The notes under the pieces are model-generated. The model was not told the DNA's origin. It saw nothing but the letters and a program-made list of their open reading frames with translations, and made no database searches. The translations under genes were made by a program, and so were the position numbers. A stretch of DNA of 64,000 nucleotides, from positions 11,207,263 through 11,271,262 of the forward strand of contig NC_134028.1 of NCBI RefSeq assembly GCF_964204645.1. The letters run 5' to 3'. Shown piece by piece: positions 3,980 through 47,553 of the stretch. Each line of letters starts with the position of its first letter. Position 1 is the first letter of the stretch. Source of the stretch: Tubulanus polymorphus. Taxonomy: Eukaryota; Animalia; Nemertea.

Positions 3980-4218
3980 TATTTTCGAAAACAAGTGCTC
4001 TTATTTCCATAGTTACGTTACATTGTGATGGCTAACAAAGTAGGAACCAGTAAAATTTTGAAATTTCCTGATACAAAGTTGCGCGTATGAGACTAGAGAA
4101 AATGTATTGTCCAAGTTTGACTAGCAATTACTTGAAAACTAATAAAGATAATAAAACGGTAAAAAGCACATAACACCACATATAGATGTCTATCGATCCT
4201 GACAATTTCAAAAACGTC

Positions 4219-4631
4219 AGTAGTATAGTCAGAGGGGGGTTCTGGCACAGCTAACTTTTGGGCTAACTGTGCTAATGTGAGCTAACTTTGAGCTAATGTA
4301 AGCTAACTTTTGGCTAATCTGAGCTAACTTTTGAGCTAATCTGAGCTAATGTCGGTTAACATCTGAGCTAATCTGAGCAAACTTTTGAGCTAATCTGAGC
4401 TAATGTTGGTTAACATCTGAGCTAATCTGAGCAAACTGTTGAGCTAATCTGAGCTAATATCGGTTAACATCTGAGCTAATTTGAGCTAATGTCGGTTAAC
4501 ATCTGAGCTAATCTGAGCTAACATTGAGCTAATGTGAGTGAATGAATGTTAATACCGAGCTAATGTGAACTAGTTATCGGGGTTATGTCTATGTGTTATA
4601 TGGAGCTAATGTGGGTTAACTATTGAGTTAG
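4219..4631 (+). repeat. Maverick left TIR with internal GAGCTAA(T/C) tandem motifs
   Basis: Inverted match to 17310-17669; carries one extra 54-bp unit. Confidence 0.95.
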
Positions 4632-4785
4632 GTATTTAGTTACCGGTTTTTATGGTAATCTATTGAGCTGGTGTGTGTGAAATTTAAAAACGAGATCATT
4701 TGAATATGGTTAAATCTGAATGAATATAAACATATGCAAATTATCAATTGTTTCGATGATTACGATCCTCGTTCTGAAAAATATC

Positions 4786-4834
4786 TGACGTCATGAGGGG
4801 TATATAACGTGTGTTCTCCAAAGGTGATTTCATT
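4786..4834 (+). promoter_or_regulatory. Putative Pol II promoter of the PC4 gene: CRE (TGACGTCA), TATA box, Inr-like TCATT
   Basis: TGACGTCA 4786-4793, TATATAA 4801-4807, TCATT at 4830 (about 29 nt after the TATA), ATG at 4848. Confidence 0.6.
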
Positions 4835-4847
4835 CGTTGAGTTGATC

Positions 4848-5698
4848 ATGGATACGCACACAACTCCGGTGTTGAAACGAAACATGTCTGAACCTGATGC
4901 TCCAAAAAAGAGACCTCGAAGACTGAATTTCAAGAATTTAAAGCTAGATATTAACGCTGCTAAGCCTGGTATGTATGTGTAATTAATTTGTTTGTTTGTA
5001 AAACATCCTCTCCTCCTTTGAGTTATTTATTGTTTCACTTGTAATGTAACGATATTATCTTTTCTTTTGTCATAGATACAGTTGTTAAAGAGAATGCTTG
5101 TGTACAAACAGATATAAAACTGAGTGAGTCTAAAGAAGAATACGTCTATGCGAAAGCGGATGTGAAACGTCATTATCTGGGCAATTTAGTGTTTGCGTGT
5201 GTCAGCGAGTGGCAGGATGTTAAACGTGTTGACATACGAACTTATGAACTCAGTGATGACCTTCGATTATTTCCAAAGAAATGCGGCATTAGCCTACACC
5301 TGCAAGAATGGGCTAATCTCGACTGGCATAGAGATTCCATAAATTCCGCCATCAATTCGTTTAATGAAAGCAACAATAACAATAATATCATAGAGGATTT
5401 TCGATTACACGTCGGTAGGAACCGATACGTGACCGTGTTCAAACGTTTCAATAAGGTTATAATCGACATTAGATATTTTTGTTATATAGCTGCAACGGAA
5501 CAACGAGTTCATACGAAAACCGGGATAGAACTATCTGAAAAACAGTGGGAGAAACTGATGAATATTTCTTTCGTTGATTTGGAACCTGAACTCGTTGGGA
5601 TGAAAGCGTGTATGTTCAATGATGATCATCAGAATCAGATGGGTGCTCTCCAGTGTGTTTACTGTAATCCTCATCCTGTATTCCAAATCGATGATTAA
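4848..5698 (+). CDS. Tandem double PC4 (p15/Sub1-like) ssDNA-binding/coactivator protein; exons 4848-4968 and 5076-5698
   Basis: Two PC4-like repeats (VSEW..VDIRTYE..PKKCGISL..EW and RYVTV..IDIRYF..TKTGIELSEKQW). A phase-1 intron gtatgt...ttgtcatag joins an upstream exon with basic PKKRPRRLNF in frame. Confidence 0.8.
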
Positions 5699-6137
5699 TG
5701 AATATATGTATCTCCTGTATCCTCAATCCATATATAGATAAATATCAAAAACTAAAGTCATGAATTATGTTAATAATCAAATGCTGGTTTTTTCTTTATT
5801 AATTTTAAAAAAGAATTATAGGGAAATTGGCATAAAAAAGTAGAAAAGGAAGAAAAAAACGGGAAAAGGTGCGCTTAGAGGGGGTACGAGTTAGATCCCA
5901 TCCCTGAAATAAAAAGAAATATAGAAAACACTTATAACGATATTAAACCAATGGTTTACCAACTTTCATATAATCTTAAATAAATAGATAAATAAATAAA
6001 TATATATATTAGTTAAATAGTTTAAAGTACAACTGAAAACATAAACGCATGTATAAGTGAGTGTAAATAAATCAATGTTTATAACTATGAATAAATAAAA
6101 ATATGCAAATATATATTAAGTATAACGACTTGTTCTT

Positions 6138-9100
6138 TTAATGATGATTTATCTCCGGAATTTTATGATGACCATAAGCATATGTGCTTACACCATCATC
6201 TAGTATATAACGTTTGTCGTCGTATGGTGATAATCCGACTTTATTTAAATTAACTGAATGTAACTTATGATTGAAGCTCCGGATAGACCGCATGTTAGCC
6301 ATCATACGTGATTGATTACGCAAGCAATCAACGTAGTTATTATGGGATACGGACTGCTTAACGACGTACTTCGCAACACCTTTTGCAGTTTTCTTTTCCA
6401 CAAGTGTTCCGTTGTTAACAGGAGAAAGATATGTCATTGAATACATCTTACTCCGTAAACCGCAGAACACTTTAACGGGAAAAGAATTGGTCTCATCCTT
6501 AAGTTTGCCTAGTACTTTCTTATTTTTGTCCGAGAATAAAGGATGGCCGGTGGGATAGGCTGAAAAGTCGAACTGGTCGAAAATCCCCGCCATATCCGCG
6601 TACAAATCGTAGCTGCGAATAGCGTATGTTAAACTATCCGTATCTGTAAAAAGAAGTTTAGCGTTATCCCCGTATCCTGCCTTGATGGTGTTAAAATGAA
6701 AATCATACATTAACGTTTTGCTTATGTCTAAAATTGAAAAGCCAAGATACACAGACTTATCCAACTTGATTGAAATCTGCTGTTTTTTTACCCCCACAAC
6801 ATTCTCCGAAATAATGTTCCATGAAATCGTAGATGGCTTCGCTAGAGCTTTTCTCAATTTCCCCGGTTCGTTAATAATTTGGTAGTTGATTCGATTCCTA
6901 ATGTTCTCCATTGTCTTGCCAAAACTTGCATTATTCAGTAATTTGTACATATCTTTCTCAAAATTGGATTTCGCATTTTTTCGGAATTCGGTATTCAAAG
7001 CAATGTACGGTGACATCCAGGCTGATTGTCGAAAATGGAGAACACGATGAATTTTGTTAATTTCATACCAAGTTTCATGTAAAGCCTCAAATTCGTAGTG
7101 TAGTAATGACAAGGATCTAATCCGTAGCTCTTATGAGCGAACTTGCGGAATTCCTCGAAAATATCTGAAAGTAGCAATACGTCGTTCTAAGATAGAGATC
7201 GTGATACTCGCCCATGTTTGCGTCAGGGTGTTGGTAAATGCCTCCTTAGGAGGGAGACTTGTCTCATTAAATTTCTCCGAACCTGTCATGTAGTCGTATT
7301 GGCAAACACCTTTACGTAACAAAAGATCAAGTTTATTGGCGGGGAACTCCGAGTTTAAATGAATGAATTTCTCTCTACCCGAATTGACCAAATTTTTCCG
7401 TAAGAGTACTGAGAGAGGTATTGAGAAATGCCAACGAGTCGATGAAGCGTAGGGGACCAAGTGTAAATCCGATAAACTTTTCAGTGTTCGTCGGGATCAC
7501 TGAAATTCTATACCCCCTAAATTCAACCAAGCCCAATGATCTAATAATTTCATGACTGTCATAACTTTTCAAGTTATGAAATATCAGAGCTATGAAATTA
7601 GGAACCCTATAACTCAGATTACATGAATTACAAGCTGGGCCTCTGTATTTGCCGGTTATATGATCGTGATCCCGACATTTCTTACCATTTATGGTTTCCT
7701 TACATATATGACAAATATCAGTTGATTTGAAGTGTGTTTCATCGACGTCGTTCATAACCAAAGGTTGAGGATTTTTGTAGTCCTGTAATATTTCCTCTGC
7801 TTTTTCGAGGAGGGATGTTAGGAATTTCTTCATAACATCGTCTCCTCTATAAAGGACTGTCGGATGGGAATGTCTGGTGTCAGGGCCAACGACTTTAAAA
7901 CAAAATCCAAACGGTTCATGAACCTGATAACGATATGTCCAAGATTGATTCTGGTTCAATTTACACCCCTCAATCGGTTCTAAAAACATTTCGAAGTCAG
8001 CATATATCACATATGGCAGTTTGTGCTGTTTTGTGACATTAACAAATTTCAAGACATTCTCATCTGTCGGTGACATGATTGTCTTTTGTATTCCTTGAAT
8101 ACAGTACCGAGTATGAACATCAAGATTCTCTTGCGATAAAAAAGAGTGCATGCACTTAAAACACCAAAAACATTTGGCTTTTTTTTTGTTTAAATGGAAA
8201 AGGAATTTACTAAGGTCATTTATCGAACAATAATGGGTGTTATCGTTATCAACTAGTAATAATAAATTAACATGATTTGTGCGTGGATTATCACTCAAAC
8301 GACGAACAAAAATATTTCCATCCTCATAGGCAAATACGTTAACTGATATATCGTTTTGCTGTTCGAAAATGGGTATTTGTTCTACGGTTACTGGATAATT
8401 GATATTGTTCATATTCAATTCGTTTCTGTACCGTAAATACTTAGATACTCGTTGGGGGTTCGTGTCCATTCGGTGGAGGTGGGCGAGTATAGACCATAGA
8501 AAGCACATATTGTCGAAATTTTGGATATTTATAACCCCTCCTCGTGAAACGATTACACGAGGAGAGCGTATATACGAACATCCACCTAATGGTTCATAAA
8601 TGCCGACGTGTAGATCGAACACTTCGACATAATCAAACCTCCAACGAGTACCCACAGTATTGTATTGTTCCAATAATTGGATCATTTTATTCTTAGCCTG
8701 ATCCAAGAGCTCGTCAAATTGTTCACCATTGAAAGCACTTCGAGTGTGGCTAGTAAAATACACAGTCCTTTGTTGATGGACACCATCGATATCTTTTTCT
8801 AAAATTATATGAATGCTGGTAAACCATTTTATCCCACCCAATCTACTTAAATCATCTTTAAGCAGTCGGATGAGATGCGGTTTGAGTTCGTTATAAAATT
8901 TAATTAAATCAAACTTGTTGTTTTCAGTGGATGGGAACTCGTATTTTCGTACATACCCCGCTAAGGCGCCACCTTGCCGGATCCCGATGAGGGCGAGAGT
9001 TTCCTCATCAAGATCCGGTAACTCTTCCCATTCCCATTCCAGTGGTGCCCCTCCTACTGCTGCTGCTGCTGCTGCTGCTGGTGGTGGTGCCCCTACTGCT

Positions 9101-9531
9101 GCTGGCACTGCAGCTGCTGGCACTACTGCTGCTGGCACTGCTGCTGCTGGCACTGCTGCTGCTGGCACTGCTGCTGCTGGCACTGCTGCTGCTGGCGGCG
9201 CCCCTACTGCTGCTGCTGGCACTGCTGCTGCTGGCAGCGCCCCTACTGCTGCTGCTGGCGGTGCCGGTGCTTCAAGGACCAGTCGCCGTCGTGCCGCTGG
9301 GATTGGGAGGGGTCTCGCACAACGTGATTGGTGCCTGTCCCGGTAGGCCGTCGTGCTAAACCCCTCCCCGCATTTGGCACAAAGCGGTTTACTCTTTTCG
9401 TGCACCCGGTTAATGTGCCGGGATCTCGAGCTGGCGTGTGCGAACACCAGCTCGCACATTGTGCACCCATACTGCTTGGGTAGGGCGACTGGTCCTAAGC
9501 TGAGTCGTTCTGATACTTGTTTCTGTGCCAT
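6138..9531 (-). pseudogene. Protein-primed family B DNA polymerase (pPolB) with N-terminal C2H2 fingers, terminal-protein region and EndoVII-like Zn domain; frameshifted and internally deleted
   Basis: YADFE, FHNLKSYD, FIDS (exonuclease); CRDHDHITGKYRGPACNSCN; KLLNNASFGK; FTDTDS; LRSKMY; DDKR. Split over four ORFs; polymerase motif A is absent. Confidence 0.93.
9043..9265 (-). repeat. Coding minisatellite (15-bp units, AAAVP/AAAVG) in the pPolB N-terminus
   Basis: Repeated ggcactgctgctgct units on the + strand. Confidence 0.9.
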
Positions 9532-9600
9532 CTAAAGAGAAAGAAAGGAAGACAGAAATAAATATAATGTGTGGATAATAATCTTTAAAATGAACGTGTT

Positions 9601-10281
9601 TTGAATAGATTGCTGTTAATTTTGATTCTGTTAATCTGTGGTAAAAGGCTGGAAATAGCTGATTTACCGCCGACTAAATTGCAAGGATGGTTCACGTCGA
9701 TTATCAATGGAATGACTGGTATCGGGAAGACAGTCTTTACTAAAAGATTGATTGAAGAAAGAATGTTCGATCCATTTCCCGATCGTATAGTTTGGGTGTA
9801 CGCCGAAGATCAGGAAATCTATCACGATACAGAGGGAGCTGAGTTTATTAAGGGTTTAACAGAGGAATTGTACGAAAGTTTGTCAGGTTCAGAGACAACA
9901 AAACTACTTATTTTGGATGATGTATTGAACGAGTGCGACCCCAGATTATTGGAGACCATTTTTACACGTGGTAGTCATCATAGAAAACTTCAAGTGATTC
10001 TAATATCACAAACCCTTTTCCCGAGAGGACCTCATTTTCGGACAATATCATTAAACACGCATTATATAGTTCTATTCAAGCATCCGAGGGATCGACTCCA
10101 AGTAAAGACTTTAGCGATGCAGTCCGGGTTAGGTAAATCGCTCGAGGAGGCGTTTACAGATGCGACCTCAATTTCACCGCGTGGATATCTATTTTGTGAT
10201 TTCAAACCACAAACGTCGGACAAATGGAGATTACGCACACGAATATTTCCAGCGAGGGATATCATATTTATTATAAGATAA
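9601..10281 (+). CDS. A32/FtsK-like genome-packaging ATPase (start codon uncertain)
   Basis: Walker A GMTGIGKT, Walker B LLILDD, TRGSHH, RTISLNTHYIVLFK. No ATG precedes Walker A; CTG at 9649 is a possible lost or alternative start. Confidence 0.9.
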   Translation: MNRLLLILILLICGKRLEIADLPPTKLQGWFTSIINGMTGIGKTVFTKRLIEERMFDPFPDRIVWVYAEDQEIYHDTEGAEFIKGLTEELYESLSGSETTKLLILDDVLNECDPRLLETIFTRGSHHRKLQVILISQTLFPRGPHFRTISLNTHYIVLFKHPRDRLQVKTLAMQSGLGKSLEEAFTDATSISPRGYLFCDFKPQTSDKWRLRTRIFPARDIIFIIR

Positions 10282-10328
10282 AAAGTATTAAATAATGTAA
10301 TTTCACGCGAACATCGTCAATTGATAAA

Positions 10329-10645
10329 ATGAGGAACCACTTGCATTTGAAGGAATTCGCTCCTCACTTAAGACTTTTATGCGATGGAAAGAAAAATATG
10401 CGCGATGCGATTCTGTCATCATCGTCGAACAGATTAGTGAAAGTTATTTGCGAAGTCTGTATAAATTCATTAAGAGGGAATATCAAACACAGCGAATCGG
10501 ATAAAAAGAAATTGAAGCGACATAAGAAGTGGATTCGAATAGACGAGTACCGATTAAATCGAAAAAATCATTAATCGTGCAAAAAGGCGGTTTCCTTGGA
10601 CTGATACTGAAAGGAATCGGTCGACTACTCGGGTTTATGGAATGA
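10329..10645 (+). pseudogene. Small basic virion protein ending in QKGG|FLGLILKGIGRLLGF amphipathic peptide (frameshifted)
   Basis: ORF 10329-10574 continues in another frame as VPIKSKKSLIVQKGGFLGLILKGIGRLLGFME* (stop at 10645); GG|F resembles an adenain cleavage site. Confidence 0.65.
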
Positions 10646-11379
10646 AGAACGTTGAAAAACTTTACGTTGTTCCGGAATCATTTATTCCAATGATTGAAAA
10701 AATCACATCAACCGATGAAAAGCGAGAATCTTCGAGTGGCGAAACGAATCGCGTGAAAAATATAGAAAGTCAAATGTCCGATATCCTTCAAATGGATAAT
10801 GATGTGAAGGACGATGTGAAATTGAAGATGTATAACGACGCGTTGAATAAACTAATGCAAATCGAAAAACATTCAAAGGAGTCGACGATCACTAATTCTA
10901 ACATAGTAAGTAAAAGCAGTGCATTGAATACCGATCGTGATTTAAAACGAACTACCGAAACTAAAAGTGAATTCGACCAGGAAATTTTGAATAACGTACC
11001 GATAAACTATAGAAAGAAATCGGAAATGTTATTGGAGCGAATAAAGCGATATTCCGAAATATTGTCATGGACCGATAAGGGGGAGATAATAGTAAAAGGA
11101 GTCAAAAGAGATGATAGTAATATCGTCGATTTAATCAATCTCTGCATGACACCTAACAAGTCTGAACAAATGAACGGACTCGACGATTTCATCAAGGCAT
11201 TACAAGATATGTCCGTTCCACAGACGTTTATCCCGAATAAATTCGTTAGAAATAAATTAATTAACAATCGCCCGAACGTTAAGAATGAATTCGAAGCAAA
11301 GATGACGAAGAGGAGGAGGATGACTACGCCATCTAAATATTCTAAAGATATAGATTTCGAAAATTGGATTTATATGTGA
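10642..11379 (+). CDS. Conserved-type Maverick hypothetical protein (245 aa)
   Basis: Intact ORF in the morphogenesis block; the LSWTDKGEII..SNIVDLI motif resembles Polinton uncharacterised proteins as I recall them. Confidence 0.65.
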   Translation: MKNVEKLYVVPESFIPMIEKITSTDEKRESSSGETNRVKNIESQMSDILQMDNDVKDDVKLKMYNDALNKLMQIEKHSKESTITNSNIVSKSSALNTDRDLKRTTETKSEFDQEILNNVPINYRKKSEMLLERIKRYSEILSWTDKGEIIVKGVKRDDSNIVDLINLCMTPNKSEQMNGLDDFIKALQDMSVPQTFIPNKFVRNKLINNRPNVKNEFEAKMTKRRRMTTPSKYSKDIDFENWIYM

Positions 11380-11407
11380 ACATATTTTTGTTTAGGGTAT
11401 TTGTAGA

Positions 11408-11451
11408 ATATAATGATAATAATAATAGTAATAATAATAATAATAATAATG

Positions 11452-11496
<45 letters not shown>
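11408..11496 (+). repeat. (AAT)n microsatellite
   Basis: Direct read. Confidence 0.95.
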
Positions 11497-11498
<2 letters not shown>

Positions 11499-11694
11499 GC
11501 TAATTTATCATCGGATTACCATTTTTATTCGATAGTCGTTGATACGTTTTGATGAATCTAATGTTAGTTTCAAATTCTAATATACGTTGTCGTCATCGTT
11601 GTCGTCGAGTGATCTATATCTGAAAGAGAGTGAATGGAGAAAATTTAGATTCTATCTCATTTTATCCAAGTTCACTTAGTATCTAGCTCTCGTA

Positions 11695-12232
11695 ATGGTA
11701 ACATCAAAAATGATCGACGTTGTTAATGTAGTAGCGACTGCAAATCTTAATTGTAAGCTCAATCTAGAGGAGTTGTCTAGGACAATGTTAAACGTAGTGT
11801 ACAACCCTCGTAAATTTAACGCATTAATTCTTAGGAATAAGCGCATCAGGGGCACGTGTCTATTATTCACAAGCGGGAGAATAGTATGTAACGGAGCAAA
11901 GTCATCCAGCGAGAGTTATACCAGTGTGCGACGATTTGCTAGATTGATACAAAAGATTAATACCACTGCCGCCGTTAGATTGACAGAATTTAAAATTCAA
12001 ACAATGACAGGTGTTGCGAAAAACGGGAATTAAAGTTAACTTATCCCAACTACACACGTTATTAGGTGGACGATATGATCCGGAGATCACCCCCAGCCTC
12101 ATATCTCGCTGTGGAAATGTTACATTTATAATACAACATAAGGGATGTGTGATTATTAGCGGGTGTAAATCTTTAAAGCAGATTATTTCGGTGTTGCCGC
12201 ATGTGTTGTTCAATATGCATATGTGTGAATAA
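11695..12232 (+). CDS. TATA-binding-protein (TBP/TRF) homologue encoded by the Maverick, with a 1-nt frameshift in an A5 run (12019-12023)
   Basis: VNVVATANLNCKLNL..YNPRKFNALILR..LLFTSGRIVCNGAKS..RRFARLIQK..FKIQ aligns with TBP repeat 1 (QNIVSTVNLGCKLDL..YNPKRFAAVIMR..LIFSSGKMVCTGAKS..RKYARVVQK..FKIQ). The next frame gives repeat 2 (YDPEITPSL..GCVIISGCKS). Confidence 0.9.
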
Positions 12233-12342
12233 TCGGGATAACGAAATGATGAAGTCTGATTGTTTACCGCAATCGCTCATTAACATTAATTGTAAAAAAT
12301 TCAACATTTCGTGTTGTGTGCAACAGTCAAAAGTGGAAGACG

Positions 12343-13415
12343 ATGTCGACTCGCCTGACCTCGGACTTGAAACAGATACTGAACAACCTGTACTACAACC
12401 CAGAAAACCCAAGCGCTTTCGGTGGTTTGAATGCATTACATCGCGCCGCGAAGCTGTCCGGAAATGAAATTGGTATAGACGTTATTAGAGACTTTCTGAA
12501 ATCGCAAGAGGCATATACGCTTCATCGTCCTACTCGCGTGCGTTTCAAGAGGAATAGAACAATAGTATCCGGTATCAATCAACAGCATCAAATCGATTTG
12601 TGTGATTTATCGAATATATCTAAGTATAATAAAGGAATTAAATATCTACTGGTTTCGATCGACGTTTTTTCTAAATTCGCTTACGCCATACCCCTAAAGT
12701 CGAAAAATGGTGGAGAAGTTAGTAGCGCATTCGAAGGTATAGCGATTAAAAGTCGTATGAAAAAAGTTCAAAGTGATAAGGGCAAAGAATTTTTGAATGC
12801 ACATTTTAGCAAGATAACAAAGAAGTATAACATTCATCACTTTACGAGCGAGGATACAGTGAAATGTAGTATTGTCGAGCGATTCATCAGAACGTTAAAG
12901 GGAAGATTATTCCGCTATATGACCGCGTACAAGACGAAAACCTATATAGATGTTCTTCCTAAGATTATAAATGCCTACAACAATTCGTATCATAGGTCGA
13001 TAAAAATGAACCCGTCTCAAGTTAGTGAAAATAATGAGAAGTTGGTGTGGGAAAACCTATACGGAAAAAAGAGTCTCTTATGAACAAACAGTACAAGTTT
13101 TCTATTGGGGATACCGTCAGAATCGCGAGATATAAGAAAGATTTCGACAAGGGTTATTTACCCGGATGGTCGCACGAAATATTCTCGGTTTCAAAACAGA
13201 TCCCGCACAACCCACCGACATATAACATTACAGATCAAATGGGTGAGCAGGTTCAGGGACAATTCTATCATCAAGAATTACAAAAAGTAATTAAAAACGA
13301 CGATGTTTACCGAGTGGAGAAGATTATAAGAAGACGCGGTCGAGGAAGAAACCGCGAGTTGCCTGTGAAGTGGTTGGGATACCCGACGAAATTCAATTCG
13401 TGGATTCCGGCATGA
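12343..13415 (+). CDS. Retroviral-like (RVE) DDE integrase with C-terminal SH3-like and chromodomain, split into two frames at about 13065-13083
   Basis: LYYNP, HQIDLCD, QSDKGKEF, VERFIRT, YNNSYH; then FSIGDTVRI..GW..E.F and YRVEKII..VKWLGYP..FNSWI. Confidence 0.92.
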
Positions 13416-14161
13416 GAAGAAGAATGCATGACTTTTATCTAACATTATTGAGCGATGGAAGCGTGGATGAATTTCCAGGAAACTCTCAAGAAAAGTTTAA
13501 AGTGAAATTGAGAGGGACGATTAACCTAGAAGGTAATTGGGAAGTCGCGTTAGTTCACATAAATTTCAATTGCGAATTCGACAACGTAATTACTGGAGAA
13601 TTTTATGTGGACTCTGGTGATGGACAATGGAGCGACGCACCGGCGGCGAATAAAATACAACTAATGTATAATGAGATAAGCCAACGAGTTTCGATTAGAT
13701 TATCCGATAACGCGAAAATTAAGTTCAGGAAGGAATTAGCCTGGGTGTTGGGCTTCCCTTCGATGCATGTAGTCGACGCCGACATTTTTAGTGATGATAT
13801 TACCGAAACTAAAATCATAGGAAAAGCAAGTTCATCCGATAACTTCGGCTACGTCAAGGTCATAGCGTCTAGACCGGTCGACCTTATGGCCGATAATCAT
13901 AACATCCTAATCTATTCAGAGTTAATTCAACATCAACAAGTTGGACACGATAGCGCACCTTTGTCAAGGATTGTAGGTGTAAACGATATAAATCAAACAG
14001 TTATAGATCGTGAATTTAGACGACCTTATTATCTTCCGCTCAGGAATAATCGACTGGACGTTATTGAAATCTATATGTTTAAGGACAGTGGTACTCCGCC
14101 CATCTTTAAAAGGGGCAAAGTATCCCTCGTGTTACATTTTAGACGAAAGTTGTTACTATGA
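13412..14161 (+). CDS. Minor capsid protein (penton, single jelly-roll)
   Basis: FYLTLLSD..FPGN...FKVKL...LEGNWEVAL and C-terminal YYLPL..IEI..D..G..F..G..LVLHFR, typical of the Maverick penton. Confidence 0.85.
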   Translation: MRRRMHDFYLTLLSDGSVDEFPGNSQEKFKVKLRGTINLEGNWEVALVHINFNCEFDNVITGEFYVDSGDGQWSDAPAANKIQLMYNEISQRVSIRLSDNAKIKFRKELAWVLGFPSMHVVDADIFSDDITETKIIGKASSSDNFGYVKVIASRPVDLMADNHNILIYSELIQHQQVGHDSAPLSRIVGVNDINQTVIDREFRRPYYLPLRNNRLDVIEIYMFKDSGTPPIFKRGKVSLVLHFRRKLLL

Positions 14162-14553
14162 AAACCGAATGTATCATAGATCAAGACGCTTGCTGTAATT
14201 ATTATTTACGGCAGGCGGGTGGCGGGAATGATTTCTATCACGGTAGACCGATACAAAAAGGAGCAGGATTCGGATCTATTCTGGGAGGATTATTCAGGGG
14301 AGCGATCCCTTTGTTTAAGACAATTGCAAAGAAAGCAGCACCACATATAGTTAAAGCCGGTGTCAACACAATAGGTGACGTCATTGGTGGAAGAGATCTA
14401 GGAGAATCGTTATTGAATAATGGTACAACAGCCGTTCGAAATGTATTAAAAGCCCCGAATAATCAGAGAAAACGTAAAGTAAAATCGAAGTCGAATAGAC
14501 GTCGTCGGGTGAAATGTCAATGTGGAACAATCGAAAGCCTGGAGGCATATTAA
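14158..14553 (+). CDS. Core/membrane-lytic precursor protein (adenovirus pVII/pX/pVI-like role inferred)
   Basis: YY..QAGGG, QKGAGFGSILGGLFR amphipathic segment, Arg/Lys-rich tail. Confidence 0.7.
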   Translation: MKTECIIDQDACCNYYLRQAGGGNDFYHGRPIQKGAGFGSILGGLFRGAIPLFKTIAKKAAPHIVKAGVNTIGDVIGGRDLGESLLNNGTTAVRNVLKAPNNQRKRKVKSKSNRRRRVKCQCGTIESLEAY

Positions 14554-14616
14554 TTAACTGATCGTTATCATTGTTAACATCTTCATTGTCATCGCCAACA
14601 TCAACACCGATATAAC

Positions 14617-15934
14617 ATGGGTTTGAAAGTACACAAAGACACGCACCCTGCACTCAAGAGTGAATTGGACATCTTTTCACTGCCGATGACTAATATCACT
14701 ATGGAGTCTGCACATTATGCTAAATATCAACCGTTAGCTACAATTACGGATAGCGGAAATATCGATTTTCTTATAACCGGTAACTCACAACATTATCCAG
14801 ATTTAAACCACACGTGGTTAGATGCAACGTTTAAAATTGTAAAGGGCGACGGCAGTCCGATGAACAATGACAAAGCAGGTGATCCTGTAGCTGCCCTTAT
14901 TAATTACGCTCAGTCACTATTCAGTGACGTCGAGGTACGATTCAACGATAAATGAATTAGTAATGGAATGGACTTACACCCGATTAGAGCCGCTATTGAG
15001 AACTTGATATTTTGTCAATCATCTACGAAACCGGGATGGATGGAAAGTGCTATGATATATAAAGACGAAGCCGGGCGTATGAACGATACAGATCCTAGAA
15101 GCGCGAATTGTAACTCGGGTCTCAAAGAACGTTATGATTTGCTGAAAAAGCCGAACAATCTCGTAAAAGCGCAACTTCGATTACACAGCGATGCGTTCGG
15201 ACTAGATAAACTACTTCTCTCGAATGTAACGGTTAAAGTTAAGTTAATCAGAAGTAAGGATGCATTTTGTTTAATGTCCCCGAATCCAGATGTAAAGTTC
15301 GAAGTGAAAATTGAAAACGCTACATTAAATGTACGACGAGTACAACTAAGCCCGTCAATTCAGTTAGCGCATGAGAAAGCATTGTCCACTAGTAATGCCA
15401 AATACCATTTTGTAAAAACAAGCATTTTTCCGGTGAATAAACCACGTGGAGTACGCAGTGTTATAAGAGATAATCTGATAATTGGAAATTTACCGAGGAA
15501 TATAATTATCGGATTCTGCTCGGACGAATCGCTGAGTGGAAGTTACGATAAAAACCCGTTCAACTTTAAACACTATGATATCGCTAGAATTGCGGTGTCC
15601 ATTAATGGGTCGCAAGTTGAAGCATCGGCAATAAATTTCGAGTCGAAAGACTTGAGTGAAGGATATTTCTCATTGTTCATTGGCACCGGTATATTGTATC
15701 AAGATAAGACAATTGGAATAACCAGAAAAGATTATGCTAACGGATATTTCCTAACCGCATTCGATGACACCGGATTTCGGATTCAGTGACCTGGCTATCA
15801 GTAAAAAGGGTTCCCTTCGCGTGGAATTGGAATTTTCAAAACCTCTACCGGAAAATATTAATTTACTATTATACACCAATTTTGATGAAGTGTTGGAAAT
15901 TACAAAAGACCGCACTGTTGTCACAGATTTTTAA
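14617..15934 (+). pseudogene. Major capsid protein (double jelly-roll) with in-frame stop (14953-14955) and frameshift near 15765
   Basis: KSELDIFSLP, QSLFSDVEV, LHSD, KNPFNFKHYD, LTAFD; continues in another frame as TPD..GSLRVELEFSKPL..LEITKDRTVVTDF* ending at 15934. Confidence 0.9.
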
Positions 15935-15938
15935 AAAG

Positions 15939-16406
15939 ATGTTGTATACCGATCAATTAATTAATATTTTACGCGAAGATACTTGTGCGAACAAATTGTT
16001 TAAAGGTGTCTACGCAGCTGATCGTTTACCCGAACCTCCTGAGTATCCCAGTATTTTTATTGTAAACTCTCAAAATAGTGATAAGAGCGGAGAACATTGG
16101 ATTTGTTTTATAATATTTGCAAATAAACAAGGTTATTTCCTAGATAGTTACGGACTACAACCGCAATTCTATAATATTATATTAAGAAACTATTTACATA
16201 CACACTGTCATTACTGGGATTATTCTCGAGTTAGAGTACAAAGTTTGTTTAGTACAAATTGCGGATATTATTGCATATATTTTGTAACTCTTCTCTCACA
16301 CGGTATGTGTTTTCCCGAGATATTCAGTAGTTTTAGTAAAACTGATTACGAGTATAATGATTATTATGTTAAACAATTTGTTAGCAAGTATTTCATTAGA
16401 ATGTAA
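15939..16406 (+). CDS. Adenain-like cysteine protease (155 aa)
   Basis: GVYAAD.LP, GEHW, DSYG, Q...STNCGYYC catalytic motifs; true ATG at 15939. Confidence 0.92.
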   Translation: MLYTDQLINILREDTCANKLFKGVYAADRLPEPPEYPSIFIVNSQNSDKSGEHWICFIIFANKQGYFLDSYGLQPQFYNIILRNYLHTHCHYWDYSRVRVQSLFSTNCGYYCIYFVTLLSHGMCFPEIFSSFSKTDYEYNDYYVKQFVSKYFIRM

Positions 16407-17309
16407 ATTTCATCTTAAAAAAGTGATAAAAAATTGTAAAATATTTTTCGATACAATGCAAAAATTTCGGTAACGAGTATACATATTTCACATTGAGAAT
16501 ATCTAAACATAAGAATTATGTAGAATTAAGGAAAATAATACGTAGCTTACCTTAGTAAATGAGTTTTCTTTCCTTAGTCTCCTTTGGTGACGATAATGTC
16601 GATGATGATGATGATAGCGTGGTTCTGCATTGTTGGATACTTCGACGCGTTGGAACGAAAAAGACCGTGTTGCGGTAGTCGGCATTTTTAAATGTTCGAT
16701 CAACAATAGGATGTTAAAATTTACCAATCAACGTAATTTTTAAGTTACCACAGAATCATACCATTGGTCTACTTTAAATCACGTGATACAGATGTCCGAC
16801 GATAAATTCATTTATGATAGTATTCTCGGAAGCAAAACCTAATAAATCACATTGAACCCAGTATTCATGATGAAGATTATAAAGAGAAAAAATGCCATTA
16901 CCGTCGGTGGGAACTCTCGAAATTACACCGGAGTGTTATTGTTCTGTATTCTCATTAACAGGTCATCTGAGTTCGCATATCCCAACTATCATGTTAGCCC
17001 CTATTGTTATTCAACTACATTCACCATCACATCCACTCCTGTCTGTTAAATTCATAGAATTTCAGACACATTCAATAAAAATATCTTGCTATACTTATAG
17101 TTTTGTCTCCCCTGTTTAATTAACACTCGAAATAATTACATCATACTTACATCATACATACCATACTTATAACATATACTTTGTTCTATCAGATTTTACT
17201 GAACCCCCTTTCACAATACTTTCAGAAATTTACTCATATACCAGAAATAGTATAAACAACCCGCTGTTAACCCTCATCAGCACAACAATAACACACATTA
17301 GCTCAATAG

Positions 17310-17669
17310 CTAACTCAATAGTTAACCCACATTAGCTCCATATAACACATAGACATTAGCCCGATAACTAGTTCACATTAGCTCGGTATTAACATTCATT
17401 CACTCACATTAGCTCAATGTTAGCTCAGATTAGCTCAGATGTTAACCGATATTAGCTCAAATTAGCTCAGATGTTAACCGACATTAGCTCAGATTAGCTC
17501 AAAAGTTTGCTCAGATTAGCTCAGATGTTAACCGACATTAGCTCAGATTAGCTCAAAAGTTAGCTCAGATTAGCTCAAAAGTTAGCTTACATTAGCTCAA
17601 AGTTAGCTCACATTAGCACAGTTAGCCCAAAAGTTAGCCGTGCCAGAACCCCCCTCTGACTATACTACT
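17310..17669 (-). repeat. Maverick right TIR
   Basis: Reverse complement of 4219-4631 minus one 54-bp unit. Confidence 0.95.
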
Positions 17670-20600
17670 AATGTCGATTAAAATTTATAAGAATTACGAA
17701 CTTTTGAATGACATGGGCAATAATTCAAGTTGAATTATCGGGAAGACGATATCAATGTTTATAACTTCACCAGCGCACATTGTTGCATTAAATTGATAAA
17801 TGAGTGATATCATAAAAGATTTAATTATCAGCCGAGTTCATTGATATTTTCACTTTGTTTCTATCTCATTCCAATCCAGAGATATGAACGAAATAAGAAA
17901 ATCAAACGGGGCAAAAATAGGGACAAAAAATTCAACAATGCGGACCCGGCGGGTACCCAAAAAATGGCGCCTGGAAACTGTAGGTAAAAAGGCTTATTAT
18001 CTACATTTTCAAATATAGGCTACAAAGAAATTTCGAACATAATGCAGATATCAACACTTGGCATCTGAACCAAACACCCCAGAAATTCGATACTTTATCA
18101 CAATTCGAAATTTTGATTATTCAAATCCACTTCAAGGAATTTCTACATTTCTAATCTACCAATCTAGTTTGAATGAGCAAATTACAAATGCCATATATTA
18201 GTAATTTCACAACACACCAATATTGACCACTAAGACTTAGAACTACAAAAGTAAATGTTGGAACAGTTGGTTGCAGGATACTGATGACCTATATTGATAC
18301 CTGCATAAAGCAGAGGCGGATCCAGAGGCCAACTTTGAAGAACTTGTCACATCCCAATAAAGAACTTTCATGTCCAAGGCAATTAGGTGTATCCCTGCAC
18401 TGAAATGTGCCAATTATCTTTGTTGACAAAATGAAAAAAAAATGTGCCCAAAAAATTTGATGGACATGTACAAGTCTCACAGGTCCCCCTGGATCCAACC
18501 CACTATAAAGCATGAAACGCATATATAGATTATGCCCTAATATCGTTGTATCATTCACCTAAACTGTGAAAACCACAACCTTTGGTTAGCTGCTTGAGAT
18601 CAAACATGAGCAATGTTATATGAGTAACCTCTATACAGACACATAGAAGAAATAATATGCTCATAGGTTCCCTTCTGGAAAGTCCCAAAAAGTAGCAGTT
18701 TCTACATTATTATCATATGAATAATGGATCTCCATATTCATCCTAGCATTGAACGACTAAAATCGTCAGTGTATCGGCTGAGGAGCTGTGCAGGTGGAGA
18801 TATAGTTTAATATGCAGTGCAGTCATGCATGCCACAGAGCTGATTGCCTCAGATTGCTGTGTGCCTGGACAAATGCTTAAATTTGTTCGACAAATCATAT
18901 GATAGCCAAACGTCGCTGTGATATGGTAGTTTGACATCGGTTACCAATTTTCTCATTTTTTGGTAGTGATTAGAACAGCAGTTGAGACCTATGGGTGCCA
19001 TCTTTATTTAGTACATTGGTAGCACAGTGGTATCTAACACAGTGATCATTTCAACATTTCAATCAAGGTGGTCTCAAATGTGTACTTGCCTCACATTCAC
19101 ATGGTTGCTGTTCATGTCAATGCATGAAATAATGTATCCAATTCAATTCACAAAACTTCAACAGCCATATATCACTTCAAATGTCTTAAAATTACAGCAA
19201 GCAGCAAGTCAAACGTAGTGGAAGTACCTAACAGTACAGCATTTTGAAGGATACACGTGTTTTCATGCTTCTTGTAATCTTAAGACATTTTCAGTAATAC
19301 ATAGCCATGGAATTGATGTATATTTATAATGGACACATGTGGTTTTTAGGTTAAAGGATTTGCTGGGTTAATGCATAGTTAGTTCAGATAAAAAATAATG
19401 CCCATTGAATTGGCAATGAAAATGGAATAATGGTGTGTATAGGTCAAACTTCTTACTATGCTATCAAACTAGCAAATTTGAAAGGGAAAATTGTTGAAAT
19501 TGCATATTCGCTTGGCTATGAGAATCATTCATTGGTCCTGCAAATCCGAAACAAATAAGAGTCTAGAGTACCATTGCCAGTTCATGCCCAGTTCTTACTG
19601 AATCATGTTATTACGTAAGCACTTACGTGCTAAATAATGCAACATTTTAATACCAATATCTTGACTAAAAATGTAGAGGCAGTTTTCTTGAAACAGCTTC
19701 ATCTTTCTTAAAATATCATTGAAAATTTCAACAAAATAACCGTGATATCAAGAAGTCTGGAAAATATCAAAGAGCTCAGCTGCATATTACAGGTATGTGA
19801 TTATTCAATATGGTTTCTTAAAACAGCATGTAAATTCCATAATTTTATAATTCAAAAATATTACTAGTTTCTCAATAATGAATATCACATTGGGCAGCTT
19901 TAATATTATATTTTTTACATGCTGTTTTTTAATTTGAAAATATCAGCATAATCAACTGATTTCTACTGAGATGTTTTTTAGACATGTTGATGATACCCTA
20001 ATGTTATTCTCTGAAAATCTTCAATGAATTCAGTTTATCTATCACTTGAATAATACAAAATAGGGCAAGCGATAAAGCAGTAGTTCCCAACATAAGAATG
20101 GTTTACAGATGGCCTAGGGCTCAAATGATGATGTTCATAAATCAGGCCAAAATAAATTCATAAACATGAATCATCTACATTATAATTGCAAAATGTGATT
20201 TAATGAATTGTGACTATATACTGGACAAGGATAGCTGAAAAATGTGCAGAGGACAAATTAAACGTTCATCAAAGTATTAGGGTATTCTAAGATGAACATA
20301 GGTCATTTGATTGAACTTCAACCAATTTCAATAATGTATTCAATGTTAGAATTATGTAAGTTCTCTCAACCGGCTAACAGATCCACAAAAAGCATTAATC
20401 TCTATAGAAACATACAAAGAAAGCAACAAAAGCAAGGAATTCAATGAGAAAAGTTCTCGAACCAAGCCCAGTAGCTAAGTTAACAAACATTTAATTGGTC
20501 ACAAGTTCTAAAGAAGAAACATTGCATAGTTATGTATTACCCCAAGGTGATCGTTGAATGTGGATTGATGGACGACGACGCTCTAGATAATATAGGCAAG

Positions 20601-39100: not shown

Positions 39101-41380
39101 TCAGGTAACAAGGTCAACTCAGATAAATAGAAGCGAGAAAATTTAGGGGTTTATAAAGTGAGGGCCTGTAGGTCAAAAAGTACATCGAGATGAGTTGCAC
39201 AAAAAACGGCAACACTTCCAGGATGGATTGGACTTTTATATATTTCAATTCCAAGTATGCAAGTTCTCATACGTGAAAACGTGCCATTACATAGTGCTAA
39301 AAAGCAGGGTTTTTACGTGTTTTTCAAGAATAAGTCCCCTAAGAATAACTAGATCACTATGAAATTTTAGTGGGCTCGAGAACTCATTAAGCCAAACCAT
39401 GACACCAAAAATCAACGATATTGGTTCAATAGCCAATGTTTGTGCCTTGTTGACACATCGGTACTCTATTCATTTTCAATGAAAACTGCACCAGACCGTT
39501 TGCATAGGCAAACCTATGGTTCGCCAAAAACTTTCATTTGAAACAATTCATTCATACGCACTAGAGCTAGCAGGCTATACACAGTTGTAGTGTGAATTAC
39601 ACTCCTTATCTAGTATAATTGTGTATATATACTGTAGTGTACAGCGCATCTGAATATAGAAGGCAATCAAAACAAACTATTCAATAAAACAATACACATG
39701 ACGGATACATATAAATGTGAAATATATTTTATAATCTATATTCCCATAAGCTGAAAGGGCCAGAAATTGCTTGTATCTAGTCAAATGAAATGCTCACCAT
39801 TTGGATATTCGATTAAGGCTTTCCCATAATTTTGATACTATGGTTTTCCCACACGTCAGAAGCTCCCAAAGCTCCTGCATATCCCAGAACCAGCCTATCA
39901 CATTTGCCTTTAGAGACGATGCCCCCAATAAGGTCATTGCAAAGATAAAAACCCACTATTTACAAATTAAAAGAAATCGAAAAACGAGAATTTATTTATT
40001 GAAACAATCTAAAATACAAGAACACGACATTTCGATCTCACACTAGAGATCATCGTCAGGTGTGAGATATTGACTAAAAACAGGGGTATATATACAGAGG
40101 AGAACAGGTTAATTGAGTAAATTGGTGAGTGAGTAACTAATTAGTGTTTGGCAAGGCATGAAGCAATATACTTAGATAGAAGGGAATTGTGAGGAGAAAA
40201 GCCATTATTTAAATTGGTACTAATATCTGAGTGACGAGTCATTAGGGCTGACTCAACTATGTGGCGTTTAGTGTAATTGCTGGAAGTATAGATAATTTCG
40301 GCTTTATCAAAATTAAAACGATGAGCAGTGTTCCAAACGTGATTGGCTACACCACTAGCTGTTTTTTTATTTATTATATCCTTTTTGTGTTCCAAATTCG
40401 AGTTTTTAAATCACGACCAGTTTCTCCAAAGTACATTTTATCACAGCCAAAACAAGGAATTTTGTACACTCCGCAGTCCAAAGGTTTAGATTGATTGTTT
40501 TTTACCAAAGTCTTGCTAATTTTGTTTTCATACGTGAAAATGATTTGTTTATCCAATAAAGGGAGAGAGTGACGAAACTTTTCCAAAACAGGTACATACG
40601 GAACAAGAATTAATTCTGAAATGTGTTTTTCATTTTCTGGAAGTTAAGAATTAAAGAAAGTACGTTTAGCCTTAGAAATAGCGATTTTCAAAATGTAATC
40701 AGGGTAAGCCAATTTTTTAAGAGAGTTGGTTATATGGTCAAATTCAGCCGAAAGGAAGGTTTCATCGCATATCCGAAGTGCACGGAGAAAGAGGCCTAGA
40801 GCGCGACCAATTTTGATTGATTTAGCAGTAAATAATGAAAAGAAATGGAGATACGCCTCAGCGTTGATCGGTTTATGGTAGACTGAAACTAGAAAGAAAC
40901 TTTTTAATAGGACGACGAGAGAGAATAGAAATTAAAAGTGGAACTCGGGGTGAAGACGAGTTAGGTTGGTTGCTAAGGCTTACACACTGTAGTGCTTTTG
41001 TAACCGGCTGGTTGTTGTATCGGCAGGCTGGCTGGGGAACTAGCATTTACACCAGCGGTACAGGATTCCATCCATCAGGAACAACAAGGCAGTTAAACCT
41101 TATATGTACAATCTTTATTGCATCCCGGAATGAGAATGATTATCATAGCTTTACATAGTCTTTATATACAAAATCATGAGTATAATGTGAGAACTAGGTG
41201 TCAGACAAGTTGTAGACATCAGGACGCACAAATAAACACCTAGTGACATGTTTGAGAGACATTAATTAATTATCGATGAGCACTGACTATAGCTAATTAT
41301 CGTGAAAACATGTTGAGTAATGTCACATGTTGATTACGACCTTAAAGCACATATTGACACTATAGTCATAAGTTATATTA

Positions 41381-41414
<34 letters not shown>

Positions 41415-44400
41415 ATGTAGTAGAGCTATGAAATGTTATGAACTGCTCGATATGACATTGTAGATCTATATGATTATGAAATATGCAAATTATATCAGGG
41501 TGACAGATGCCCCTTGTCCAATTAAATTTGGTCCTCCAAATTTGCGGAAAACGCAGATACCATAAGTTCATCAAAACTCCTTCCATCGCGAAAACATGAA
41601 AGATTGACTTTCACCGCGCAAAAATGTGCAAACGCTGGACAGTAACATCCGGATTATCAGTCATTCACGAAAGAGTCACATGTTGTCGTTATATACGGAC
41701 GATGCGATGATACGTTAACTGTAATTTTGAATGATCTGCAAACGATCCCCGAATTCTGGTTGGTTCTGCGACGAACAGAAGTAGCGACGTGTTGCGTAGT
41801 TATAGCGTCCCGAAGATCAGTTGGTGATGCAAGTTGCAAGTAGTACGCATTTCTCTGTTTTGAAGATCTTTCGATTACTGACTGGAAATAACTTCGTGAC
41901 ACAATGATAGTAACATGCAACATTTGACATCAGAGCAGAGTTCAGGCAATGACACAACACAAATACAGTTACCCTTGTCAGCCAAAAGGAAAAAATTATC
42001 ATCATCCAAAATAAGTGGTCAGAAGTAAATAAAGAATAACCATAGTAATTGAGCAAAGATGACACCACCAGCATAACTGAACTGTTTTAACACCTATCAT
42101 CGCAGTCTCAATTAATCCACGTTATATTATCTCATTGATAAATTCATACCGTACCGTACACTCATCTCAGTTATGTCTCGTATTAGATTTACAATGACGT
42201 TATTTGCGTGTTTTCTACGAAAGATTTCATGCACTCTACTTAAAATGACTAGTATATATTAATTGAACGTATGAACTATCCGATCTTTGAACCGTTCAGG
42301 GCGTAAATAAACTGAAAATATACGTACGAGTAATAAGCTGATCAATTCATCGTTGATATCCATATGATATCCTGGAAAGCTTAAGAAAACCTACTGTAGC
42401 TACTACTGAGTTTCGAAGAAATAGATTTTAAACGAGAAGCGTACTGACTGTGTGCCAGGAGGTGTTTCATACCAAGGCCGCCATGCAGGGGGAGCGAACC
42501 GCCCAAATAAAATATAGTATTCTAAGACTCCCTGGTCGTTGAAACGTGTTGATACGGCTCGAGCGGCAGTAGGTATAATGTTTTTGAGCTCGGTTTCGGT
42601 GGGAGGCCTTTCATTTTCCAAGATGACATGATATATACCCCATACATGTTCAAGACTCTCTCCGTAATCACTTACTTCAAACCAATCTCGTTTTGATGCC
42701 CGGTACCATGGACTGTCATGGTAATATTTTACGAATAGCACATTATTTTGAAATTTGGTAGCAACAACCGTTTTTCCTGTAGGGCACGGACACAATGCTC
42801 GACGATTTCCCGTCCGAATAGCTTCTTCGATAGCGACATTACTTGAATCTGAACTACTCTTAACGCTATCCTGATTCGTATGATCTTGGTGAGTTTTCGA
42901 TCGAGCTGAACAATATACACTATTTACATTCTCATTATTTGATGAGTCTTCATTAGACATCTGATTATCAAATTCCTGGAAGCGATCATTAGTAACATAT
43001 ACACCCTGTATTACGGTTCCATTTAATTTTCTTCTAGGTTTTTCACGTATCTCTACTTCACTATCCTGACATCTATCTCTATTTGTGATTATAATATTTG
43101 CTACGTCATTCTCGTTTTCATTTCGATCGTTTTGATGTCCCTTATTATCAGAATTGTCTGTAATGCGATCAAAAAAATTACTTTTGCAAGGTTTCTTACG
43201 TTTTTTGCCTGATGCCGCATAGTTTTCGTGAAAGTGTCGAATTAGTTTATTTGGGATCCATTTTCCTAATTCCCAAGAATTTCCACGATTTAAATCTGAC
43301 TTCCATTTTACGCCATATTTACATAAACCACTTTCTAGTTTGTACTGTAGAATTTTCTGAATATCTGATTCATTGAAAGTCTCAGTAACTACCGGTCTAT
43401 CTTTGTTATCGTCAGCCGAAATTTGAGTGTCAGTTGGAGTATCAGCTAAATTGCTAGGTTTATATTTTAAGCGCCCATGAATCTCGTCGAATAATTCAGG
43501 GTTTTCCTCAGCTGTTGAACCATCCCATGCGACCTCTTCATAATTTGGACGCGATGAGGGATCTTTGTATAACTTAAGACGGTTCCCATTGACATGCGAT
43601 GGGAGTAAAACGTTATCAGAGATTCTTCGTAATTGATAAGCCCCTTTACTAGCTATTGACTGAATGAAATCGGGACCTACGTATTTTTTACACAGTTTTG
43701 GTGATTTTCCTTTCTTAACTTTCATGACTTATAGCCAAACGCGATCAGTAATCTGAAACTGAGGTTTTAATGCCTTTTTATCGAACTGAGTTTTATACTT
43801 ATTTTGAGCTCTTTTAATATTCTCGTTAGCGATATTTCGTGATATGACCAGCTGCCTTAATATATGTGATAAGTATGCCTTATGATCAGTAGCTAACGAA
43901 TGCCGTGGAATTAAAGCCGTGTCTATTGGTAGACGCATTTCTTGACCAAATAACATGTGGTAAGGGCTAAAACCTGAACCTTCAGTTGAGGGAACATGCC
44001 TATAACTCATCATTACACTTGGCATTAGTGTATCCCAATTAGTCTGATCCTGGTTACAATACGACCTAAGCGACTGCCAAATGTACTGGTTAGTTCTCTC
44101 GCAAACTGAGTTTGATTGAGGATGGTACGGAGCGGTGAAATGTTGTTTCACGTGAAACAATTCACAGAGAGCTCCAACTAACTTAGACATAAATGTTTTA
44201 CCGCGATCAGAGACTAAAGAATGAGGAGCACCATACCGCGAAAATATCTCTTTAAAGAGAACCTTTGCTACCTCTGTTGTTTCCTGAGTTTTGAGAGGAA
44301 AAGCCTCGGGCCATTTACTCCAGCTATCTACCACGAGTAGAATATGCTTATTACCATCAGGTGTCTCCGGAAGATTGCAAAGGAAGTCAATGTGCCATCT

Positions 44401-47400: not shown

Positions 47401-47515
47401 TATCGATGAGCACTGACTATAGCTAATTATCGTGAAAACATGTTGAGTAATGTCACATGTTGATTACGACCTTAAAGCACATATTGACACTATAGTCATA
47501 AGTTATATTATATTA

Positions 47516-47553
<38 letters not shown>

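Follow-up and report, generated by a model that had tools for sequence, protein, structure and literature searches.

In the TATA-binding protein (TBP), the phenylalanine pair of the C-terminal lobe inserts at the first TATA step and that of the N-terminal lobe at the last, as excerpts of PMC3142196 and PMC1636458 describe; two acidic residues of the C-lobe bind TFIIB, and a basic cluster of the N-lobe binds TFIIA, TAF1, Brf and Mot1 (excerpts of PMC7221094). The double kink made by these four Phe residues counts as the core of TATA recognition, and the known losses of them, in TRF2, a trypanosome and a dinoflagellate, are in cellular proteins with many partners. In the parts of the literature drawn on here, TRF2 has three of the four altered, one of them the N-lobe Phe116, which is Trp (PMC4180970, PMC7221094), in Trypanosoma brucei the first pair is gone, and in Crypthecodinium cohnii none of the four is left (PMC4180970, PMC8461331, PMC5029490). 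Most viral TBPs of large DNA viruses pair with a viral TFIIB, according to an excerpt of PMC7221094. For MELD viruses and adintoviruses, a TBP-like gene is labelled in the figure legends of Starrett et al. (PMC8502044; bioRxiv 10.1101/697771), and the text of those legends gives neither a residue analysis nor a function for it.

The window, a stretch of 64,000 nucleotides from the nemertean Tubulanus polymorphus, carries a TBP-like gene inside a Maverick/Polinton element. The element spans 13,451 bp (4219-17669), has the termini AGTAGT...ACTACT and displays the hallmarks of its class: long terminal inverted repeats (TIRs), a 6-bp target-site duplication, an rve integrase (Pfam, E 6e-10) and an adenovirus-type protease whose Peptidase_C5 match (E 8e-4) lies under the Pfam cut-off. 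The left TIR (4219-4642, plus strand) and the right TIR (17299-17669, minus strand) agree at 363 of 370 aligned bases (98.1%), with a 54-nt and a 1-nt indel in addition, and consist of arrays of short TTAGCTCA-like units. The left target-site copy (4213-4218) is identical to the right copy (17670-17675) at 5/6 positions, with one mismatch. Because both flanks of the element match a single uninterrupted host arm (1-230) in which the 6-bp target is present once, the ends of the element are fixed. The Maverick is nested in an outer DNA transposon, within its right-hand inverted repeat, and we take this outer transposon to be ISL2EU-like; the flanks (4092-4218 and 17670-17776) match the arm at 123/127 and 106/107 positions and overlap by the 6-bp target, and SAP, alkaline-exonuclease and THAP/HTH_Tnp_4 ORFs lie between the arms. 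Elsewhere in the window, an LTR retrotransposon (40999-47647) with reverse transcriptase, RNase H and integrase is a recent insertion, since its two LTRs show 100% identity across 300 nt.

Besides TBP, the Pfam matches in the element include a PC4 coactivator/ssDNA-binding gene with two PC4 stretches (5045-5695, plus strand), the rve integrase core (12343-13083, plus strand), a chromodomain ORF (13080-13415, plus strand) and the weak protease match (15885-16406, plus strand, 19.5 bits), together with weak P-loop matches at 9712-10281 and an Endonuclease_7 match within 7375-9531. The chromodomain ORF is the C-terminal part of the integrase, detached in the window's copy; at 13065, other copies differ in length by 2 nt. 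The Pfam-scanned ORFs of the element include no polymerase or capsid domain, no RNA polymerase and no member of the TFIIB family, although a very divergent TFIIB could escape such a scan. The labels polymerase, ATPase and capsid are provisional and follow the usual Maverick gene order (protein-primed DNA polymerase B, packaging ATPase, jelly-roll capsid). The ORFs of the polymerase region and of the capsid region are split, which marks the window's Maverick copy as decaying. The PC4 gene is preceded by a perfect CRE palindrome (TGACGTCA) and by a TATATAA box (4786-4807; 4888-5695), which would fit an early gene driven by host TBP; the gene apparently has an intron, with a GT near 4969 and an AG near 5076. 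A 15-nt tandem array at 9024-9307 encodes a tract rich in Ala, Val and Pro within the N-terminal part of a large minus-strand ORF.

The TBP-like gene lies on the plus strand in two parts. The 5' part (11695-12033) contains repeat 1 and the first strand of repeat 2 and ends in a premature stop, and the 3' part (12008-12232), which uses the next reading frame, contains the remainder of repeat 2; judged by alignment, translation more likely starts at the second Met (11710). Against PF00352, repeat 1 reaches 86.3 bits and repeat 2, at 20.8 bits, stays just below the cut-off of 22.9, and these scores place the match of the two repeats beyond chance. The sequence-only reading of this DNA had singled out five motifs, all of which are present and align as it claimed: NPRKF (11803-11817), LLFTSG (11860-11877), QT (11998-12003), YDPEIT (12074-12091) and IIQHKG (12128-12145). 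With canonical animal TBP aligned as the reference and residues numbered as in yeast TBP, the equivalents of Asn69 (11725-11727), Phe99 (11815-11817, in NPRKF) and Phe116 (11866-11868, in LLFTSG) are kept. In repeat 2, Phe190 is replaced by Thr within YDPEIT, and Phe207 by Gln and Ser209 by Lys within IIQHKG, so that the four intercalating positions (99, 116, 190, 207) read F, F, T, Q; the claimed asymmetry, with the Phe pair kept in repeat 1 and missing from repeat 2, therefore holds in the alignment. To become Phe codons, the two repeat-2 codons would need 2 and 3 substitutions. The Asn69/Asn159 dyad pair is also broken, as Asn159 is Thr (12001-12003), and alignments to archaeal TBPs agree with the animal-TBP assignments at all three changed positions (Thr at Phe190, Gln at Phe207, Thr at Asn159). 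The acidic stirrup of the C-lobe was likewise rightly described as roughly kept, with Asp186 and Glu188 in YDPEIT. In the helix-2 basic patch (11917-11955), R137, R138, R141 and K145 are basic and K133 is Tyr.

The sequence-only reading made no mention of the frame break between the repeats. Both halves of the gene match PF00352, but they stand in different frames: repeat 1 and QT share a frame that stops at 12031-12033, and YDPEIT and IIQHKG occupy the next frame, open over 12008-12232. The change of frame falls within 12008-12030 (plus strand). In DNA run X5, which may be the sample from which the window derives, 17 of 18 reads match the window at this point, so the break is real and an assembly error is ruled out as its source; it is absent from the close contigs of runs X1, X2 and X3, which represent two samples of one study. 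With the frameshift lying between the repeats, the window's copy cannot make a two-repeat saddle protein.

In a copy so degraded, with its frameshifted TBP gene and its split polymerase-region and capsid-region ORFs, the Phe codons might have been lost after integration, in an element that was already dead. A nonsense change in the Gln207 codon (at 12134), carried by 9 of 34 X5 reads, all from a diverged subfamily, marks another dead copy and points the same way. Decay would need five substitutions at the named sites, against a divergence of about 1-2% (TIRs 98.1% identical; 9 differences in 751 nt in the closest contig). The contigs X1 record 1, X2 record 5 and X3 record 8 differ from the window at 9, 2 and 7 positions, none of them in either repeat-2 codon. 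A second subfamily, about 80% identical, is present in all four runs, and its contig in X1 (3,450 nt) runs colinear with the window through TBP, integrase, chromodomain and the ORF that follows. Across 12074-12177 this contig differs from the window at 19 of 104 nt. Within 12085-12177 there are 18 differences, 17 of them listed: 10 codons have synonymous changes, the Thr codon among them, and 6 nonsynonymous ones, and no listed change falls in the Gln codon. The single unlisted difference could turn neither repeat-2 codon into Phe. At least 10 synonymous changes out of 18 would arise under neutrality with P 0.002-0.009, and omega across the repeat-2 core is about 0.08-0.16 between the subfamilies, a sign of purifying selection, in a stretch that was chosen by an 80% identity filter and is thus biased towards conservation. 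This core is the longest TBP stretch (104 nt) to pass the filter; the repeat-1 core with both Phe codons fell below it and was unread in the subfamily. Maverick context was shown for the window, X1 record 2 and the contig L001, which holds the intact orthologue described below. The sibling comparison suggested by the sequence-only reading did not refute it: the close contigs, the diverged subfamily and that orthologue are all without the repeat-2 Phe pair. The asymmetry is therefore inherited and maintained, and decay, whose probability we regard as negligible, is ruled out as the cause of the loss. The feature is real, inherited and under selection, and the locus itself is a frameshifted copy.

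The intact orthologue, P0005, came from a representative protein search that gave 3,935 matches at E up to 0.001, of which the best 150 are listed. It is the closest full-length protein among the matches listed (173 aa, 57-58% identical to the repeat-1 ORF), with identities to the window's gene of 51/90 in repeat 1 and 29/66 in repeat 2, and it scores 106.1 bits against PF00352 in two stretches. Its motifs are NPHQF, LLFPNG, QT, YNPDIS and IIQHKG, the last with the same six residues as in the window, and its four intercalating positions read F, F, S, Q. Its stirrup is eroded (YNPDIS, with N186 and D188), so that at the level of sequence the acidic TFIIB residues 186/188 are D/E in the window and N/D in P0005. 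In an alignment of 157 rows, with two proteins over 500 aa left out, the P0005 cluster is the only one without Phe at both repeat-2 positions. The AlphaFold2 model of P0005 (pLDDT 96.8) superposes in Foldseek on DNA-bound TBP with a TM score of 0.94 and an rmsd of 1.5 Å, and on canonical TBPs overall with TM scores of 0.92-0.95; the protein is accordingly predicted to be a complete saddle. Its identity to cellular TBP is about 30% (TM 0.94), as against at most 19% to viral proteins in BFVD, where the best match has 16% identity and a TM score of 0.84.

On L001, homologues of both neighbours of the window's gene stand on the same sides as in the window. The upstream neighbour is a 245-aa ORF without a Pfam match (10642-11379, plus strand; 33% over 75 aa, E 3e-10), and the downstream one a Cys-rich ORF of 73 aa directly 3' of the TBP gene (12246-12467, plus strand; 40% over 35 aa, E 3e-6). 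The Cys-rich ORF, at 954-1061 in L001, lies between TBP and integrase, overlaps the start of the integrase in a different frame and has no Pfam match; an (AAT)n microsatellite of about 90 nt (11410-11497) lies between the 245-aa ORF and the TBP gene. At residues identical in P0005 and the window, 33 of 55 and 17 of 29 codons differ, which makes the split between the two old. Two near-identical direct repeats of about 45 nt lie just 5' of the P0005 start (L001 325-435), each with TATCGAGA, which in our estimation resembles a DRE motif; none of this type was seen upstream of the window's TBP gene. The metagenome scan yielded L001 and L002, the latter a bacterial-looking chance match that was dropped. 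In the word-index protein search, none of 11 candidates matched repeat 2 and one of four, a 112-aa fragment, matched repeat 1, and scans of viral contigs with the repeat-1 ORF, P0005, alignment A3, P0048 and a two-motif pattern found no relative.

P0005 falls inside a clade of at least 24 core-only TBPs (159-203 aa) with support 99/96. The set comprises 12 matches of the representative search (best 150 of 3,935) and 12 of the 19 from a second search. We left out P0173, which lies outside the clade and keeps Asn159, P0001, which has repeat 1 only, redundant cluster members, and P0172 and P0174, which are not in the clade by name or coverage. The clade tree contains no TRF2 sequence, as none was among the matches or the PDB list. 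The 20 members that were looked up are all without a name. The repeat-1 DNA face is almost invariant among the 24 listed members (N69 and L114 in 24/24, V71 and F116 in 23/24, F99 in 22/24), and positions 159 and 161, Asn and Val in TBP, are each Thr or Ser in all 24. Partner surfaces are well represented too, with an acidic residue at 186 in 20/24 and at 188 in 22/24, Arg or Lys at 137 in 23/24 and Arg at 141 in 22/24. Repeat 2 is looser: mean pairwise identity is 33% vs 39% in repeat 1, and positions 194, 205 and 211 vary widely. Phe190 is present in 18/24 listed members (otherwise three Tyr, two Met and one Ser) and Phe207 in 19/24 (otherwise two Thr and one each of Gln, Leu and Tyr), with Phe at both positions in 15/24; P0085, P0012 and P0048 are members with all four intercalating Phe, P0104 and P0073 members with three. 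Both are lost only in P0005, so that outside the host the double loss is seen in one protein cluster, 1 of 24 listed members; three others are non-aromatic at Phe207 alone. A subclade of P0104, P0073 and P0005 (support 96/89) has no Phe207 and carries Arg, Arg and Lys, respectively, at 209; P0005 and the window have lost Phe190 as well. Since the change at 159 and 161 is family-wide and the double loss is confined to P0005 and the window, the latter is a lineage trait on top of the change at the dyad.

The reading that we favour, with a probability of roughly 50%, is that the window holds a frameshifted copy of a Maverick gene for a core-only TBP whose repeat-2 Phe pair was stably lost in the lineage, and that the intact protein is a one-kink promoter factor bringing the host Pol II machinery to the element's genes. 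Judged from the structure of TBP, the wedge of repeat 1 would still insert at the 3' end of an A/T-rich site, and repeat 2 would hold the upstream half through the polar and basic residues T159, T190, Q207 and K209 without intercalating. In TBP, repeat 2 kinks and reads the 5' TA step; here the requirement for that step would relax or change. The D/E stirrup would be the docking site of host TFIIB, and helix 2 that of host TFIIA. The retention of the N-lobe wedge and of both partner surfaces, beside a polar and basic C-lobe face, fits such a one-kink, TFIIB-loading factor, and in three separate lineages the two repeat-2 Phe have given way to Thr or Ser and to Gln. The residues are compatible with the idea in the sequence-only reading that the protein may read a non-TATA or altered promoter. 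Loss of Phe need not end DNA binding: in the parts of the sources used, a dinoflagellate TLF without these Phe residues binds TTTT (PMC5029490), and the DNA bend made by poxviral VITF-3 is formed with two Ile (PMC12917281). Against this, all four Phe of KSHV ORF24 are required for late-gene activation (excerpt of PMC12529657), and Phe loss in TRF2 goes with no TATA binding (excerpt of PMC4180970), so loss of one pair may abolish rather than retune DNA binding.

Further points against the one-kink reading are the lack of a shared upstream motif in the element, the N/D stirrup of P0005, the occurrence of the double loss in a single protein cluster outside the host, the choice of the omega stretch by an identity filter, and the lower conservation of repeat 2 relative to repeat 1. 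For the first, counts of 5- to 8-mers in the 150 nt upstream of 10 plus-strand genes of this single element gave no significant shared motif. The best 5-mer, TAAAA, was found in 9/10 upstream regions, a count equalled in 6% of random sets, and position tests of four post-hoc A-rich patterns gave P 0.09-0.44; TAAAA lies at -50, -50 and -51 of three genes, which is a lead. A more specific version, possible though short of probable, is a half-kink TBP in an animal Maverick lineage that would bend DNA by its N-lobe wedge only, read a non-TA 5' half with C-lobe Thr, Gln and Lys, and recruit host TFIIB, with the clade preserving intermediates from four to three to two Phe. If true, such a protein would be a one-protein private promoter code for the element.

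We find it doubtful that the protein is instead a half-site binder whose repeat 2 makes no more specific contacts to DNA and survives only as a fold and as a surface on which TFIIB or a partner encoded by the element docks, with Thr, Gln and Lys as tolerated inherited states. The greater divergence of repeat 2 across the clade, the wide variation at 194, 205 and 211 and the largely kept stirrup are what such an adaptor lobe would lead one to expect, and the QHK shared by the window and P0005 at a background identity of 44% is, taken alone, little evidence against it. What speaks against it is that Lys or Arg at 209, a position that we take to face DNA in TBP, accompanies the loss of Phe207 in all three subclade members and in the window, and neither residue at the Phe positions changes between the two host subfamilies within the repeat-2 core. 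In addition, the Thr or Ser found in 24/24 listed members occupies 159 and 161, which face DNA in TBP (Table 1 of PMC12529657, a source used in part).

The sequence-only reading had also raised the option of a decoy, and a protein that reads no promoter and titrates host TFIIB, TFIIA or TBP regulators (Mot1/BTAF1, TAF1, NC2) would explain why the acidic stirrup and the helix-2 basic patch are largely kept. TLF represses transcription by sequestering TFIIA, as an excerpt of PMC3142196 states, and regulators that bind the concave face could likewise keep repeat 1 conserved. We nevertheless consider a decoy unlikely, as few positions in the clade are as well conserved as the DNA-reading residues of repeat 1, Phe stands at both repeat-2 positions in 15 of the 24 listed members, and the stirrup is eroded in P0005 itself; with no RNA polymerase among its scanned ORFs, the element would moreover seem to need the very factors being titrated. 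A non-transcriptional role, in which the protein binds the A/T-rich TIRs and aids protein-primed replication, excision or packaging, could draw on the arrays of repeat units in the TIRs and on the TBP gene adjoining the integrase. It leaves the retained TFIIB and TFIIA surfaces unexplained, and we consider it improbable. The clade bears on how Mavericks, with an RNA polymerase undetected here, switch on their own genes. The practical weight of this locus is smaller, as its gene is frameshifted. Across the clade as a whole, one small core-only scaffold comes in natural versions that carry four, three or two Phe. Comparing them would directly test whether a single kink suffices to load TFIIB and what share each lobe has in sequence choice and orientation.

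Compared with canonical TBP (PF00352; 1cdw, 1ytb, 1qn3), the lineage shares the two-repeat saddle, N69, V71, F99, L114, F116 and P191, the acidic stirrup and the basic helix 2. It differs in having no N-terminal extension, in F190 to Thr, F207 to Gln, N159 to Thr, T124 to Asn and S209 to Lys, in a repeat-2 hairpin two residues shorter, and in the location of the gene on a mobile element. The adintovirus TBP-like gene, in the legends available, likewise lies inside a Polinton-like element, a likeness at the level of the gene label. KSHV ORF24, the TBPs of NCLDVs and VITF-3 share the viral TBP fold and a DNA face of greater polarity, and ORF24, as here, is Asn at 124 and polar at 161 (Table 1 of PMC12529657, used in part). 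Unlike the clade, ORF24, as that part describes it, needs all four Phe and is without the acidic TFIIB residues, and unlike NCLDV-type TBP-TFIIB systems, the element shows no TFIIB match among its Pfam-scanned ORFs.

The parallel with TRF2/TBPL1/TLF drawn by the sequence-only reading carries over in part: intercalating Phe are lost and the TFIIA and TFIIB surfaces kept in both (excerpt of PMC4180970). It is a loose one, since the window lineage keeps both N-lobe Phe and lacks both C-lobe Phe, and the TRF2 signature is missing; with Trp at 116 in none of the 24 listed clade members, identity with TRF2 is rejected. Whole Phe pairs were independently lost in the TBP-family proteins of Trypanosoma brucei and Crypthecodinium cohnii, working initiation factors in the sources cited above, as one pair was in this lineage, whose protein would be a further such factor. 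The window lineage, which lost the second pair, is the mirror image of T. brucei, which lost the first, and its residues make it a line of Maverick TBPs that lacks the C-lobe Phe pair and closes a natural four-to-two Phe series.
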